Assembly (NCBI GenBank): GCA_034422455.1
Contig: DAOUJQ010000013.1
Coordinates: 17,632-81,631 of the forward strand
Length of the DNA: 64,000 bases
Reading direction: 5' to 3'
Source: Dehalococcoidia bacterium
GTDB taxonomy: Bacteria; Chloroflexota; Dehalococcoidia; Lucifugimonadales; UBA1127
In this document: positions 7,441 through 13,534 of the stretch, one piece after another
How positions within the stretch are numbered: position 1 is the stretch's first letter
How the letters are laid out: every line of letters starts with the position of its first letter
Position numbers and translations under genes: made by a program
The notes under the pieces: generated by a model
Told to the model about the DNA's origin: nothing
The model's input: only the letters and a program-made list of their open reading frames with translations
Database searches by the model: none

Positions 7441-7667
7441 ATTTCCCTTTTTTCGCTTTTTCTTCGTTTCCGTATCTGAGTTGTTCCCTTTCAGCTACGA
7501 GTCGATTTGGGGAATCGACCAGGTTGCAGATACGGTTCGATTTTGCGAACTTGCGCGCCGCAACAGTTGAAGACCTCGGGCTGTGGTTGCTTTGCGTGGG
7601 CGAAAGACGGACCCGTTGACCGGGCCCACCGGGCGGGCCAGGCCCCTGCCTGCGCAGGGGCGACGAG
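7441..7667. repeat. Degenerate E/F-related mosaic plus B'
   Basis: It shares GTTGCAGATAC, CTGAGTTG, GTTGAAG and GGCTGTGGTTG strings with elements E and F. B' (GGCCCCTGCCTGCGCAGGGGCGACGAG) lies at 7641-7667. Confidence 0.45.
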
Positions 7668-7713
7668 GGGGGTGTTGGGCTATAATGGCCCCAAGACCAC
7701 CCAAGAGGCGAGC

Positions 7714-8469
7714 ATGGACCTGGTGTTTGAGCGAGGGGAAGCGTCGGCCCCCAGGGGGCACGCCCTTCTGTACTTCCGGGAGATCGGCGGCGAGGGCAAG
7801 CTGTACGCCACCTACGTCGTCGTGCTGCCCATCGCCATCGACCTGGTCAAGTACATGCCGCCCTTCCTCGCCAACCAGATCCCGCAGGTGAACGCGCAGG
7901 AGATGTCCGCCTTCGCCTTCCCTCCCATGCCGGAGGCGGCGGCGGGCCACGCGCAGCTCGAGTCGCTGGCGGCCGCCCGCGGCGACGACCTCCTCTACGG
8001 CGGCGACATCTCGCCGTCGCAGGTGCAGGACATGCTCGTGCGCGTCAACGACCTGACGCAGGAGTACGCCGAGCGCTACCACAGCACGATGCAGCACGCG
8101 GCGCCGGTGGAGGAGCCGTCTACGCCGGAGGGCCTCCCCGGCCACGGCGTCAACGAGGTGCTCTTCGAGCTGATGAGCGACCGCGACCGGCTGGGCGAGC
8201 TCTCGAAGCTCACGGGCCGGCTGCGCTTCGCCGTCGAGGGCAACGACACGCGGCAGGTGCAGGAGGCGGAGGACGAGGTGCAGGTGCTGTCGCGCTACCT
8301 GCCGCAGCGGTACCAGATCGACGACCTGCTGCGGGCCGCCAAGGACCCCACGCGCAACGGCGGGGACCTGGCACAGCTCTACCTCGAACGGTGCTACAAG
8401 CTGGCGGACGAGGACTACCCGAGCCTGCAGGGGATAGAGGAGCGGATTCGGCAGCTGGAAGCGGGGTAG
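7714..8469 (+). CDS. Hypothetical protein
   Basis: ORF 7507-8469 trimmed to ATG 7714 (MDLVFERGEASAPRGHALLYF). Codon usage resembles the neighbouring genes. I recognise no family. Confidence 0.6.
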   Translation: MDLVFERGEASAPRGHALLYFREIGGEGKLYATYVVVLPIAIDLVKYMPPFLANQIPQVNAQEMSAFAFPPMPEAAAGHAQLESLAAARGDDLLYGGDISPSQVQDMLVRVNDLTQEYAERYHSTMQHAAPVEEPSTPEGLPGHGVNEVLFELMSDRDRLGELSKLTGRLRFAVEGNDTRQVQEAEDEVQVLSRYLPQRYQIDDLLRAAKDPTRNGGDLAQLYLERCYKLADEDYPSLQGIEERIRQLEAG

Positions 8470-10004: not shown

Positions 10005-10044
10005 GAGCGGCCCGGCGGAGTTCCGCCGGGCCGCTCTCATTTTG
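10005..10044. terminator. Intrinsic terminator between the convergent Rieske and CDF genes
   Basis: GAGCGGCCCGGCGGA (10005-10019) pairs perfectly with TCCGCCGGGCCGCTC (10022-10036), followed by TCATTTTG. Confidence 0.75.
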
Positions 10045-10070: not shown

Positions 10071-11342
10071 TCACGATTGAGGCTGGAAGCGGGCCTGCAG
10101 GTGCTCGACGTGGTGGCGCTCCTCCGTGCACTCCGCGACGGAGAGCTCCACCTGGATCGTCACGTGGTTGAGCCCGTGGCTGTACACGATCTTCCGGAGC
10201 TGCTTCAGTATGTCCTCCTGGCGTCCGGCCTGGGTGGGGCTCACGAAGACGTGGGCCGTGAAGGCGTCGTAGCCGGAGGTGATGGTCCAGGCGTGGACGT
10301 CGTGGACCAGCGTCACGCCCTGCACGTCCTCCATCTCGCTGCAGATGTTGTAGATGTCCACGGTCTCCGGCGTGCCCTCCAGCAATACCTTGAACACCCG
10401 CATGAACAGGCCCCAGGAGACCTTGAGGATGAGCAGGCCGATGAGGACGCTCATGATGGGGTCGGCGATGTACCAGGTCGAATTGTCGTCGGCGAACGCA
10501 ACGATCAGGATGCCGGAAATGATGACGCCGACGGAGCCCATGAGGTCCGCCATGACGTGCTGGAAGGCGCCCTCCACGTTGAGGCTCTCTCCCGCCGCCC
10601 GGTGCAGCACCCACGCCGCGGCGATGTTGATGATGAGGCCGATGACGCCGACGCTGAACATCAGCGGGCCCTCGACCTCCGGCGTGTCGGAGAAGCGGTG
10701 GTAGGCCTCCAGGAAGATCCACCCGGCGATGAGCCACAGGCTCACGGTGTTGGCGAGCGCGGCAAGCACCTCCGTCCGGTAGAAGCCGAAGGTCGAACCC
10801 GCCACGGCCGGCCGGTTGGCGATCCACATGGCGAACAGCGCCAGCGCGATGGAGGCGGCGTCGGTCAACATGTGCGCGGCGTCCGCCAGCAGCGCGAGGC
10901 TGCCGGAGAGGATGCCGCCGACGACCTCCACGAACATGAACCCGCCAATGAGGACGAGCGCCAAAATCAGGCTCTTCTTGCTGGCCCCGCGCAGGTCATG
11001 GGCATGGTCATGGCCGCCGTGCCCATGGTGATGGTGACCGTGGCCCGCGTGGGCGTGGTCATGCTCATCGTGGTCGTGGTCCTCATGCTCGTGGTCGTGG
11101 TCATGCTCGTGGTCGTGCTCCGTGTGGTCGTGCCCCGCGTGGTCGTGGGCATGGTCATGCTCATGGTCGTGGCCCGCGTGGTCGTGGGCATGGTCATGCT
11201 CGTGATCGTGCCCCGCGTGGTCGTGCCCTTCATGGTCGTGAGCATGGTCGTGGTCGTGCTCCGCGTGGTCATGGTCGTGGCCCGCGTGGTCGTGGGCATG
11301 GTCATGCTCGTGATCATGGTCATGCCGGTGTTCAGTCGTCAC
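10071..11342 (-). CDS. Cation diffusion facilitator (CzcD/ZitB-like) transporter with a very long His/Asp-rich N-terminus
   Basis: ORF track, 423 aa, GTG start with GGGAAGGGATGG upstream. The C-terminal ~300 aa has the CDF pattern ([16 protein letters not shown]...[13 protein letters not shown]...). The first ~115 aa are HDHxH repeats. Confidence 0.9.
11031..11340 (-). repeat. Coding tandem repeat (His/Asp tract of the CDF gene)
   Basis: The core GCGTGGTCGTGGGCATGGTCATGCT recurs at about 11137, 11176 (39-nt period, or 13 aa: [13 protein letters not shown]) and 11284. Confidence 0.7.
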
Positions 11343-11359
11343 GTCTATCCATCCCTTCC

Positions 11360-11400
11360 CACAGAAACGAAAGCCCGGCGATGCATTCTTGCGCCGGGCT
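11360..11400 (-). terminator. Hairpin plus T-run between the His-rich gene and the CDF gene (terminator/attenuator)
   Basis: AGCCCGGCG (11372-11380) pairs with CGCCGGGCT (11392-11400). On the minus strand the hairpin is followed by TTCGTTTCTG. Confidence 0.55.
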
Positions 11401-11447
11401 CCCGTTTATCTCCCGCTACGGACGTGTCTGCCTAGCTACGCCGAAGC

Positions 11448-11705
11448 CTAGACTGCGTGGGCAACGTGGTGCGGGTCGTCTGCCGCCGCGCAGTGCTCGC
11501 CGCCGTGCTCGTGGCAGTGGATGTGGCCGTGCTCGTCCATGTCCTCCGGGCCCATGATGGCCTGGCAGGCCGCGTCGCCGTGGATGTGGCAGTGGCCGGC
11601 GCCGTGCTCGTGGCAGTGGACGCCGTCATGGGCGTGGCAATGCTCGCCTGCATGCTCGTGACAGTGGTCGTCATGCTCGTGACTGTGGTCGTGCGCTTCC
11701 GCCAT
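11448..11705 (-). CDS. Small His/Cys-rich putative metal-binding protein (HCH repeats)
   Basis: ORF track, 85 aa with 25 His and 7 Cys by my count. The motif HCH(E/A/I)H occurs five times. RBS is AAGGAGGGG. It lies directly upstream of the CDF gene on the same strand. Confidence 0.7.
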   Translation of the reverse strand: MAEAHDHSHEHDDHCHEHAGEHCHAHDGVHCHEHGAGHCHIHGDAACQAIMGPEDMDEHGHIHCHEHGGEHCAAADDPHHVAHAV

Positions 11706-11730
11706 CTCTACCCCTCCTTACGATTTCCTC

Positions 11731-11787
11731 TTTTGAGACTCACCGTTGACAACTGAAACGTACCGTTTTGAGACAATTGGTGTCAAC
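11731..11787 (-). promoter_or_regulatory. Promoter plus candidate operator of the His-rich/CDF locus
   Basis: On the minus strand TTGACA (11786-11781) is separated by 18 nt from TACGTT (11762-11757). The 7-bp inverted repeat GTTGACA 11745-11751 / TGTCAAC 11781-11787 flanks it. An inner AAACG-TAC-CGTTT and a direct repeat TTTTGAGAC at 11731 and 11766 are also present. Confidence 0.5.
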
Positions 11788-12095
11788 CCACTACGAGAAG
11801 ATGATACTAGGTCTAGTTATCGGGCCGGTCGCTCAAGGACGAGTATCAGTAATCCACCAGGTTGCACTCCAGCCACGAGCCGCAGGGGGTACTTGACGAA
11901 GGGGCCGGCATCCGCAATCCCCATGCTCCCCCGCAGGCGTCCAGGACCCGATTGCGGCGCCGGCTGATACCCATTCTCAGTAAATGGGCCGAAAAGAGCC
12001 GGAAGGCCTTGGAAACACGCCAAAAAACGGGCCTTCGCGGGCGTCAAAGGCCGTCGAAAACGGGCCGCCGATGTCCATCACCCAGGGCTCATGCC

Positions 12096-12133: not shown

Positions 12134-13534
12134 ATGAAACAGAACAGGCCATCGTTCCGGGCCACGGCCCGATGGTCCGCGCTCCTGGCGCTTGCCGCCG
12201 CCCTCGGCGTGCTGGCGGCCGCCGCGTGCGGCCCAACCGACGACGCGACCGAGCCCTCGTCGTCACAGGAGGCCGCCGGGACCACGGAGACGTCCGGCAG
12301 CGACGCGACGACGGCCACGACGGACGCCGCCCCGAAACCGAGCGTCGAAGTCGGCCACGCCGTCGGGATGATGGCCCCGGACTTCACCGCGGAGACGGTG
12401 GCGGGCGACTCGATCACCCTGTCGGAGGTGACCGCGGGATCGCCGGTCCTCCTCTACTTCTTCACGACGTGGTGACCGACGTGCAATGCCGAGTTTCGGC
12501 ATCTGCGGTCGCTCTACCCCGGCTACCAGGACGACGTCGCCCTCATCGGCGTCGGCGTCGACCCAAGCGAGTCAGCCGACAAAATCTCGAGATGGGCCGA
12601 AAGGAACGGCTTTGATTGGCCCCTCACGGAAGCGGTCGGCAGCGCCCTGACCGACTACCGCGTGACGCAGCAATCCGCAGCCGTCGGCATCGACGCGGAC
12701 GGCATCATCGTGCTCCGCAAGAACGGCGGCCTCCAGGGCGAGGGCAAGTGGACGGAGTGGCTGGACACCCTGGGCGGTCCAAGGACTTCCGCGGAGCTGG
12801 AGGCTCCCTCCACCGCCGCCCAGGCGGCCCCGGCTCCCGTGGAAGCCGTCCCGACGCAGGCGCCAGCGCCGAGCCAGCCTTCGCCAACGGCCGCGCCCGC
12901 GCCCACAACAGCTCCGCCTCCTGCGGCTACGGCAGCTCCGGCCCCGACCACGGGCCCAGCGCCGACGGCAGCGCCTCCCCCGACGGCAATCCCAGCCCCG
13001 ACACAGGCGCCGCCTCCACCCCCAACGGCAACACCACGGCCCCGCCCGACATCGACGCCGACCCCCGCGCCAACGGCGACGCCGAACATTCCTGTCGGCC
13101 ACAACATCGGCCAGCGGGCGCCGGACTTCACCGTGACGGCGGTGAGCGGGGAGACGATCACGCTGTCCGAGGTTACGGCAACCGGCAAGCCCGTCCTCAT
13201 CTACTTCTTCGCGACATGGTGACCGACCTGCAATGCGGAGTTGCCGCATCTGCAGGGCCTCTACTCAGCCAATAGCGATGACGTGTTGATCGTGGGCATC
13301 AGCACGGACCCGGGCGACTCCGAGTCCCGCGTCCGAAGCCACGCCCGCAACAGGGGGATAACGTTCCCGATGGCGCCGCACGACCGCAGCATCGTGATCG
13401 ACTCCTACCGGGTGAGCGCGCAGTCCAGCGCCGTCGGCATCGACGCGAACGGGGTCATCCGGCTCCGCAAGGGCTACGGGCTGCAGGACGGGAACGAGTG
13501 GCGGAACTGGGTGGAGACGCTGACGGGCAGCTAG
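12134..13534 (+). CDS. Tandem two-domain TlpA/ResA-like thioredoxin-fold lipoprotein with two in-frame UGA (predicted selenocysteine) codons
   Basis: ORFs 11984-12475, 12662-13222 and 13241-13534 share one frame and are separated only by TGA at 12473 and 13220. The TGAs sit in YFFTTW-U-PTC and YFFATW-U-PTC, the redox CxxC position. A SECIS-like hairpin follows each. The signal peptide ends in a lipobox-like LAAAAC after ATG 12134. Confidence 0.75.
12482..12507 (+). promoter_or_regulatory. Bacterial SECIS-like hairpin 1
   Basis: Upper stem ATGCCGA (12486-12492) pairs with TCGGCAT (12496-12502) around loop GTT. Lower stem is TGCA/TGCG with a C bulge. The upper stem starts 10 nt after the TGA. 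Confidence 0.7.
13228..13255 (+). promoter_or_regulatory. Bacterial SECIS-like hairpin 2
   Basis: Upper stem ATGCGG (13233-13238) pairs with CCGCAT (13244-13249) around loop AGTTG. Lower stem is CTGCA/TGCAG with a C bulge. The spacer after the TGA is 10 nt. The stem differs from hairpin 1 by compensatory changes. Confidence 0.7.

Follow-up and report, generated by a model that had tools for sequence, protein, structure and literature searches.

A conserved His- and Cys-rich repeat protein encoded beside a CDF exporter in sponge-associated and marine Dehalococcoidia: a putative cytoplasmic metal buffer

Introduction

What does a very small, His-rich open reading frame (ORF) encode beside a metal exporter gene, and what might its product do for the exporter? 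The question is raised by a 64,000-nucleotide (nt) stretch of DNA from a Dehalococcoidia bacterium (contig DAOUJQ010000013.1 of assembly GCA_034422455.1), hereafter the window, in which an ORF at 11448..11705 on the minus strand lies immediately upstream of a gene for a cation diffusion facilitator (CDF). Its 85-residue product is referred to here as the HCH protein. An earlier note on this DNA had suggested a cytoplasmic metal buffer or chaperone, or else a metal-sensing partner of the exporter, and did not recognize a described family. To our knowledge, it has not been settled how cytoplasmic zinc-group metals reach CDF exporters, whereas P-type ATPases do have known soluble partners; we know of no metallochaperone or soluble partner of any CDF, and none was described in the literature searched. 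The comparison of homologous loci presented below indicates that the ORF is a real gene, and its linkage to the exporter and its persistence where the exporter has been lost are most consistent with a metal buffer that does not depend on the pump.

Results

The HCH gene and its product

11448..11705, minus strand: gene for the HCH-repeat protein, with its ATG at 11705 and a TAG stop at 11448-11450
11713..11719, minus strand: Shine-Dalgarno (SD) sequence AAGGAGG, 7 nt before the HCH ATG

Translation of the ORF gives a protein of 85 residues, 9.2 kDa and pI 5.6. It is identical to the string given in the earlier note and bears out the reported 25 His, 7 Cys and five HCHxH units (at residues 14, 22, 30, 38 and 63), as does the AAGGAGG sequence for the strong ribosome-binding site of its own. 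The protein further contains 9 Asp, 9 Glu and 9 Gly, and it is devoid of Lys, Arg, Phe, Trp and Tyr. Although His makes up 29% of the residues, the longest His run is two; Cys residues stand singly, within HCHxH, and no CxxC is present. There is no hydrophobic stretch in the protein that could serve as a signal peptide, membrane anchor or transmembrane (TM) segment. Residues 1-29 form a variable-number (E-H-C-H-x-H-x-G) repeat region, and residues 30-85 form a conserved core (HCHEHGAGHCHIHGDAAC-AI-G-E--DEHG-IHCHEHGGEHCAA-DDPHH-AHA). With a His plus Cys fraction of 0.36, the ORF ranks highest among the 609 open frames of at least 60 residues in the window, the runner-up reaching 0.17. The G+C content at third codon positions is 0.87, against 0.90 in the adjoining CDF gene. 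An antisense frame (11457-11756, plus strand) is also open, as the expected composition shadow of coding DNA rich in CAC/GTG and GAC/GAG. No second copy of the HCH gene or of the CDF gene was found in the window. AlphaFold2, run on an alignment of six sequences, returned a mean predicted local distance difference test score (pLDDT) of 44.8 and a predicted template modelling score of 0.21; the model thus predicts a disordered protein with no stable apo fold, and the low pLDDT is as expected of a protein that would fold only on metal.

An undescribed and very rare protein family

Word-indexed searches of 5.8 billion proteins returned four and then eight relatives, and when 1.84 billion cluster representatives were searched exhaustively with HMMER, six matches at E ≤ 1e-3 resulted, one of which (P0011) was a spurious eukaryote-like repeat protein and was dropped. 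Scanning 185,579 species-representative genomes revealed eight loci, all in metagenome-assembled genomes (MAGs) of Dehalococcoidia/Chloroflexota. Three further loci came from 241 million JGI metagenome records, in assemblies MKWU and LXNJ, which are marine-sponge metagenomes (PMC5099237, PMC5649159). In all, ~20 homologous loci were found, every one in a Dehalococcoidia MAG or a marine-sponge metagenome; below, WIN denotes the locus of the window and L001-L022 the loci compared with it, except that L005 is the window's own contig, an ENA metagenome scaffold. Conservation in related genomes, on which the earlier note had made its proposal depend, is thereby established, and as far as these searches indicate the family is real, very rare and restricted to sponge-associated and marine Dehalococcoidia.

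Several features of the aligned loci support translation of the ORF. A GGAGG-type site lies 5-9 nt before the ATG in 13 of the 14 loci of the alignment; the remaining one, L010, has the weaker AGAAGGG. Pairwise ratios of nonsynonymous to synonymous substitution (dN/dS) within the HCH frame range from 0.02 to 0.33 at dS values of 0.2-1.6, and variable alignment columns are distributed 29/33/68 over the three codon positions. Length alleles of 36, 37, 47, 63, 79, 84, 85, 87 and 88 residues occur, and the underlying indels are in frame except in two low-coverage frameshifted contigs, P0004 (7x) and P0005 (1x). Because of this conservation and the purifying selection in its frame, the HCH ORF is more than a chance occurrence.

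In an alignment of 12 members, the core shows no or almost no variation at five Cys and ~16 His. The aligned core, HCHxHGDxxCxxIxGxExxDEHG...HCHxHGGEHCAxxxDPHHxxHA, is non-repetitive, while the copy number of the N-terminal (E-H-C-H-x-H-x-G)n varies. The family signature accordingly begins with M-(T-T or A-E)-x-H followed by n copies of E-H-C-H-x-H-x-G, continues with HCH-x-HGD-x-x-C-x-x-I-x-G-x-E-x-x-DEHG and ends with HCH-x-H-x-x-x-HCA-x-x-x-D-P-HH-x-x-HA; the absence of Lys and Arg and an SD-preceded gene upstream of a CDF are further family traits that the ORF of the window displays. Since this non-repetitive core with its five near-invariant Cys is conserved, the alignment identifies a protein family, not mere low-complexity sequence. 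Profile searches agreed with the earlier note that the family is not a described one: none of the 12 members matched any Pfam or NCBIfam family at E ≤ 1, a PDB profile search returned only a chance antibody match (E = 0.83), no similarity to Hpn or SmtA was detected, and literature searches found no description of such a protein. Taken together, the sequence comparisons indicate that the HCH ORF is a genuine gene and represents an undescribed conserved family.

The adjoining CDF exporter

10071..11342, minus strand: CDF metal exporter gene, 423 residues, GTG start at 11342; PF01545, TIGR01297
11352-11360, minus strand: SD sequence of the CDF gene, GGGAAGGGA
10986..11342, minus strand: His-rich cytoplasmic N-terminal tail of the CDF, 119 residues

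The CDF gene matches PF01545 (8e-45) and TIGR01297 (8e-81). Among equivalog models ZitB scores best, but its 226 bits are under the cutoff of 408; by these matches the exporter is ZitB/CzcD-like and not a ZitB orthologue. The translation carries HxxxD in TM2 (AAHMLTDAA) and again in TM5 (FQHVMADLM), a pair that we take to mark the Zn/Cd/Co group of the family. A Cation_efflux domain and an HxxxD motif in both TM2 and TM5, the marks of a Zn-type CDF, are thus all present in 10071-11342.

The N-terminal tail contains 52 His and no Cys, follows the pattern (HDHxHDHxG)n and is built of tandem repeats of 15-108 nt. Its start, VTTEH(R)H, is conserved across loci, and its length is hypervariable between related strains, from ~20 to ~134 residues with 6 to 57 His (examples in relatives: L007, 5162-6205; L011, 2613-3596; L012, from 6350; L015, from 6275). 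In L005, an automatic gene call at 10769-11635 (plus strand) starts the CDF at an internal codon and gives 288 residues instead of 423, and a spurious antisense ORF of 143 residues was called over the His tail (10271-10702, minus strand); both calls correspond to ~10074-11435 of the window. Repetitive His-coding DNA evidently misleads gene finders at this locus.

Linkage of HCH to the CDF, and its loss

The co-occurrence of HCH ORFs with CDF genes, of which the earlier note could cite a single case, recurs in 18 of the 20 informative loci, where a CDF or CDF remnant follows on the same strand, immediately adjacent in 17 and beyond an inserted insertion sequence in one. The CDF is intact, or cut only by the contig end, 50-170 nt downstream in 14 loci (WIN, L002, L003, L007, L008, L011-L015, L018 and L020-L022). 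Three kinds of neighbourhood surround the pair: a thioredoxin-fold selenoprotein gene on one side and a Rieske oxygenase gene on the other; glutaminyl-tRNA synthetase and a beta-lactamase-fold protein; or a major facilitator superfamily transporter and a rhodanese. That the pair recurs in three or more distinct settings speaks for a functional link and against gene order kept by descent.

The remaining loci show the exporter lost, damaged or displaced. In L001 (~1830-2015) and L016, the CDF is internally deleted, with the His tail fused straight to the last ~35 residues; in L017 (6384-7313), it carries two frame changes; and in L010 (540-3381), it lies 2.8 kb off, beyond inserted transposase-like genes. 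Comparison of L019 (6224-6281) with L021 (4245-5791) showed a 1.55-kb segment with the hairpin and the CDF to be cleanly absent from L019, the flanks being otherwise collinear at 84-91% identity. These patterns point to repeated, independent loss or damage of the CDF beside HCH, although some cases may be assembly errors (L001 has 2x coverage). In all five loci (L001, L010, L016, L017 and L019), the HCH gene is intact. The HCH protein of L019 keeps all core ligands; dN/dS is 0.29 here and 0.11 for the pair L021 and L022, which retain the CDF, so that constraint on HCH may be somewhat relaxed after CDF loss. Because the gene stays intact where the adjacent CDF is deleted, the HCH protein appears to be useful without an adjacent pump and not to be an obligate partner. 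In L009, a contig of 1x coverage whose context is unrelated to the other loci, no CDF was seen nearby; its HCH-like ORF (P0005, 2769-2954, MTTHHDEHCHEHQGEHCHEHDGNHCHEHGTGHCHA...) is apparently frameshifted after the fourth HCH unit, and the coverage makes it uninterpretable.

HCH length and CDF tail length co-vary: HCH proteins of 79-87 residues accompany tails of 84-134 residues, and those of 36-37 residues accompany a tail of ~20 residues, counted from the conserved VTTEH start. The first residues of the two proteins are also alike (MTTxH in HCH, VTTEH in the CDF). Composition-corrected tblastn gave no match between HCH and the CDF tail at E ≤ 10, and their similarity reached z = 3.3 against shuffles; an origin of HCH from the CDF tail is statistically unsupported by these figures and is kept as speculation only.

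Short alleles and repeat dynamics

L003, 6924-7064: short HCH allele
L007, 5001-5111: short HCH allele
L008, 3426-3536: short HCH allele
L011, 2392-2505: short HCH allele

All of these alleles come from one metagenome (ERZ25071132), in which contigs of 7-20x coverage encode HCH forms of 36 or 37 residues (MAEAHDHSHEH/GHIHCHEH.GEHCAAADDPHH...); a further contig of the same metagenome encodes a frameshifted form of 46 residues. The C-terminal module HCHEH-GEHCAA-DDPHH is the one part kept in every short allele, and the forms of 36 and 37 residues adjoin CDFs with His tails of ~20 residues. Because their junctions sit at repeated GAGCAYG(S) sequences, the short alleles appear to have arisen by in-frame deletion or expansion between repeats. 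The two His-rich regions of the HCH-CDF unit seem to behave as fast-evolving copy-number tracts.

Promoter, hairpin and transcription unit

11757..11789, minus strand: promoter-like element, GGGTTGACA (11781-11789), a 16-nt spacer and GGTACGTT (11757-11764)
11802-11807, 11769-11774 and 11734-11739, minus strand: three GT(A/C)TCA motifs in conserved columns, within 11734..11815
11363..11401, minus strand: intercistronic stem-loop (11371-11401) and T-run TTCGTTTCT (11363-11371), from folding
10005..10036, minus strand: strong bidirectional terminator hairpin, 14-15 bp with a T-run, just past the CDF stop

The promoter-like element, which can alternatively be read as TTGACA-N18-TACGTT, is invariant as GGGTTGACA-N16-GGTACGTT in an alignment of WIN with L012-L015, and inspection by eye showed TTGAYA and TACKTT-like hexamers in L001, L003, L007 and L016 as well. 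A strict sigma-70 scan did not pass it, the -10 hexamer being TACGTT. The TTGACA...TACGTT element looks like a regulated promoter. The GT(A/C)TCA motifs lie upstream of the -35 hexamer (preceded by TAGACC at 11810-11815), in the promoter spacer and in the 5' untranslated region. The TAGACCNNGTATCA site is unique in the window, where one such match is expected by chance, and the -35 hexamer together with the spacer motif forms an imperfect palindrome, TTGACA-N7-TMTCAA. These motifs are a candidate operator for a regulator that is possibly metal-responsive. Between 9000 and 14000, an Rfam cmscan at E ≤ 1 returned only sub-threshold chance matches, each scoring far under the gathering score of its model and none of them to a riboswitch, the NiCo and czcD types included.

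The hairpin and T-run that the earlier note had placed between the two genes were recovered by folding. For the 105-nt HCH-CDF spacer, the folding energy is -45.9 kcal/mol, which gives z = -4.1 when compared with shuffled sequences; a strict terminator scan missed the stem-loop, whose loop has 10 nt. Ten relatives carry a stem-loop of ~21 bp in the same place, with another sequence, four compensatory pairs and no T-run, and in L021 and L022 a GC-rich inverted repeat and TTTGTGT follow HCH (by eye). The hairpin of the window, L021 and L022 has a T-rich tail and differs from that of the 10 relatives. A conserved structure just 3' of a small gene is a classic way to favour a soluble first product over a membrane protein, and the hairpin after HCH is probably a partial terminator or mRNA stabilizer that sets a high HCH to low CDF ratio. 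By its position, the terminator at 10005-10036 marks the end of the two-gene unit.

Neighbouring genes

The immediate neighbours of the HCH-CDF unit are genes for a Rieske/LigXa oxygenase, a PrpD/MmgE protein and one or more thioredoxin-fold selenoproteins. Divergent from the unit, a single long ORF (12134-13534, plus strand) contains in-frame TGAs at 12473-12475 and 13220-13222. In its product, a signal sequence of lipoprotein-like type is accompanied by two domains with a thioredoxin fold (AhpC/TSA/TlpA-like), between which runs a linker rich in Pro, Ala and Thr, and in each domain the TGA stands at the first Cys of W-C-P-x-C (YFFTTW*PTC and YFFATW*PTC, the asterisk marking the TGA). Both TGAs are kept in every syntenic locus, the contig-end fragment L020 showing one only, and a hairpin resembling a selenocysteine insertion sequence lies within ~10 nt after each. 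The product is probably a thiol:disulfide oxidoreductase that is secreted and contains two selenocysteines, and whose gene is broken into fragments by gene callers. Beside the Rieske/LigXa oxygenase gene, an ORF of 320 residues (7507-8469, plus strand) has no Pfam match at E ≤ 0.1.

Discussion

We consider it probable, though well short of certain, that the HCH protein is a cytoplasmic multi-site buffer for metals of the Zn/Cd/Co type that is co-expressed with the CDF exporter without being its obligate partner. That the protein binds metal is inferred from its composition, and the metal's identity, the induction of the unit and any hand-off to the exporter are likewise inferred. The Cys1His3-like HCHxH units and the C-x2-H-x3-H-C arrangement near the C-terminus are compatible with tetrahedral Zn or Cd sites, and because of the site-A motif of the partner CDF, the available sequences point to Zn(II) as the metal, with Cd, Co and Ni possible. 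Of the functions named in the earlier note, a cytoplasmic buffer or chaperone fits all computed data, as a deduction from composition and context; a metal-sensing partner found no specific support, and since the protein contains neither Lys nor Arg, a role as a nucleic-acid-binding sensor is unlikely.

Based on these findings, we propose a plausible mechanism for the HCH-CDF unit. A rise in cytoplasmic Zn(II), and possibly in Cd, Co or Ni, would induce the unit, in which HCH, the first of two genes, is read from the conserved promoter-like element before it and the CDF is the second. The stem-loop after the HCH gene would then leave the soluble HCH protein in excess over the membrane pump. Its ~32 His and Cys ligands, aided by 18 carboxylates, could capture several metal ions per chain, the five HCHxH units and the C-terminal C-x2-H-x3-H-C module suggesting ~5-8 tetrahedral sites. 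The protein would fold on metal and buffer the pool of free metal in the interval before its export by the CDF. Transfer of metal from HCH to the chemically similar His-rich tail of the CDF is plausible but not required; such a hand-off is attractive because the lengths of the two co-vary and both proteins start with M/V-T-T-x-H.

A number of points weigh against this proposal. Metal binding is argued solely from composition, and metal induction is assumed, no metal-sensing regulator or riboswitch having been found near the HCH-CDF unit. In the window, the T-run that follows the hairpin might place HCH and the CDF on separate transcripts. The 36-residue alleles hold 2 Cys and ~12 His, and if they are functional, high capacity is not essential. 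The covariation of HCH and tail lengths rests on few independent lineages. Finally, MAGs and metagenomes are the source of every sequence, the coverage of some is no more than 1-7x, and some of the frameshifts and deletions may be assembly errors.

Among the alternatives, the one that deserves most attention, unlikely as we hold it to be, is a dedicated metallochaperone or activity modulator that docks on the CDF, for example through the invariant C-terminal GEHCAA-DDPHH-AHA module, and feeds its N-terminal His tail, much as CopZ delivers to the N-terminal domain of CopA; such a protein would have little function without the pump. The almost constant position of HCH immediately upstream of the CDF in three contexts would be explained, as would the covariation with tail length, the shared M/V-T-T-x-H start followed by His-rich sequence, and the fact that the best-conserved part is the non-repetitive C-terminus, which even the 36-residue alleles keep. 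Set against this are the HCH gene of L019, intact and constrained after a clean CDF deletion, the intact genes of L001, L016 and L017, where the adjacent CDF is deleted or frameshifted, and a similarity to the CDF tail that is not significant after composition correction. In its boldest form, to which we likewise assign only a small chance, HCH would be the first cytosolic metallochaperone or gating partner of a CDF, a freed copy of the exporter tail that gained Cys and hands the exporter Zn, Cd or Co, with the repeat number as a "capacity dial" that tracks the tail in metal-accumulating sponge hosts. The autonomous buffer is ranked above the obligate chaperone because the covariation involves few lineages, homology is not significant and HCH outlives the pump. 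That outliving, together with a composition like that of Hpn, Hpn-2 and the His/Cys tails of SlyD, HypB and CooJ, would also suit an Hpn-like store of Ni, Co or Zn for metalloenzymes, with the CDF trimming the excess. This is less likely still, as urease, hydrogenase, carbon monoxide dehydrogenase and cobalamin genes adjoin HCH in no locus and the fixed partner is an exporter with a Zn/Cd-type site-A motif.

Three further explanations make less of the ORF as a metal-binding protein of its own, or make something different of it, and all are far less probable. A regulatory leader, in which translation of His codons controls read-through of the hairpin into the CDF in the style of the his operon and the peptide itself is functionless, is very improbable: there are indeed 25 His codons and a hairpin with a T-run 44 nt past the stop and before the CDF, but known leader peptides have ~15-30 codons against 85 here, non-His residues (5 Cys, GDAAC, DEHG and DDPHH) are conserved with dN/dS well below 1, most relatives have the hairpin without a T-run, the fold shows one stable hairpin and no alternative antiterminator pairing, and the ORF persists in L019 with no CDF downstream. 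Slightly less probable again is the precursor of a ribosomally made metallophore, that is, a ribosomally synthesized and post-translationally modified peptide with modified Cys or His, as in methanobactin. The small size, the richness in Cys and His and the contrast between an N-terminal part that varies and a conserved C-terminal one would fit, but neither a leader/core organization nor a cleavage motif is seen in HCH, and no modifying enzyme, protease or peptide exporter is conserved beside it, the CDF being the only constant between contexts. The least credible of all, and refuted as far as sequences can refute it, is that the ORF is non-functional, being a shadow of CAC/GTG-rich DNA or else a duplicated and now decaying 5' end of the CDF gene. 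The similar His codons of the CDF tail, the open antisense and other frames and the similar N-termini (MTTxH and VTTEH) are what such a by-product might show; it does not account for purifying selection specific to the HCH frame, for in-frame indels over ~20 loci, for a Cys pattern conserved in HCH while the CDF tail is Cys-free, or for an SD sequence and promoter-like element of its own.

As a metal buffer, the HCH protein would be a new family within a known functional kind, the small disordered metal-sequestering proteins, among which a CDF partner is new. It is reminiscent of Hpn and Hpn-2 of gastric Helicobacter, which are cytoplasmic proteins of 60-72 residues, His-dominated with few Cys; without metal they adopt no stable fold, each chain takes up several ions, and their role is to store or buffer metal and to guard against too much of it. 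HCH is likewise small and His-dominated with some Cys, is predicted to lack a stable apo fold and would play a similar part. Homology to Hpn was not detected (BLASTP E = 0.39 over 9 residues, for a manually entered Hpn query), and an exhaustive profile search of 1.84 billion proteins with HCH returned no Helicobacter protein. The two also differ in composition and setting: HCH has 29% His and no poly-His, against ~47% His with His6-7 runs in Hpn; its Cys lie in HCHxH units rather than EEGCC motifs; and it accompanies a Zn-type CDF exporter in Chloroflexota, whereas Hpn belongs to a Ni/urease setting. Metallothioneins (SmtA/BmtA, PF02069; MymT) are also small Cys/His proteins, cytoplasmic, sequestering Zn and Cd (or Cu) and found in metal-resistance loci. 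In contrast to SmtA, which has 9 Cys and 2-3 His in a Zn4Cys9His2-type cluster and pairs with the repressor SmtB, HCH has 25 His and 7 Cys, 5 of them conserved, and pairs with an exporter; its 12 members have no match in Pfam or NCBIfam, no sequence similarity to SmtA and no signature of a zinc-finger-like fold.

The genetic arrangement resembles that of CopZ and CopA, in that the gene for a small soluble protein accompanies that for an exporter, and the cytoplasmic N-terminus of the exporter holds a metal-binding region of similar chemistry. Unlike CopZ or Atx1, however, HCH has no HMA domain (PF00403) and no CxxC and is predicted to be disordered; it is partnered by an antiporter of the CDF class instead of a P-type ATPase, no homology to the CDF tail can be demonstrated for it, and it persists without the pump. 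PacL1 (Rv3269) of M. tuberculosis, encoded upstream of the P-ATPase CtpC, is reported to carry a His/Asp motif, to bind Zn and to be needed at high zinc (PMC9374683). HCH is similarly a small protein encoded immediately upstream of a metal exporter; PacL1 is a membrane-anchored P-ATPase scaffold with Gln/Ala repeats, whereas HCH has no hydrophobic segment and a CDF for a partner. Disordered stretches rich in His, or in His and Cys, also form the tails of SlyD, HypB, UreE and CooJ and occur in periplasmic SmbP, where they serve as reservoirs for multiple ions. The tails of these Ni chaperones extend from enzymes or GTPases that are themselves folded, and SmbP lacks Cys and is secreted; HCH, by contrast, is free-standing and cytoplasmic, with Cys and a conserved non-repetitive core.

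The absence of Lys and Arg, together with the repeats, shows why proteins of this kind escape tryptic proteomics, and recombinant HCH could serve as a compact metal-binding tag. Being linked to a CDF and tracking the length of its tail, the HCH protein is a concrete and easily expressed 9-kDa candidate for distinguishing buffering from hand-off. A chaperone for a CDF would, if true, be considerably more interesting; a generic buffer would be a modest addition to a known class. Sponge hosts are known to accumulate metals, and in their uncultured symbionts the HCH family adds an independent invention of "Hpn/metallothionein logic".

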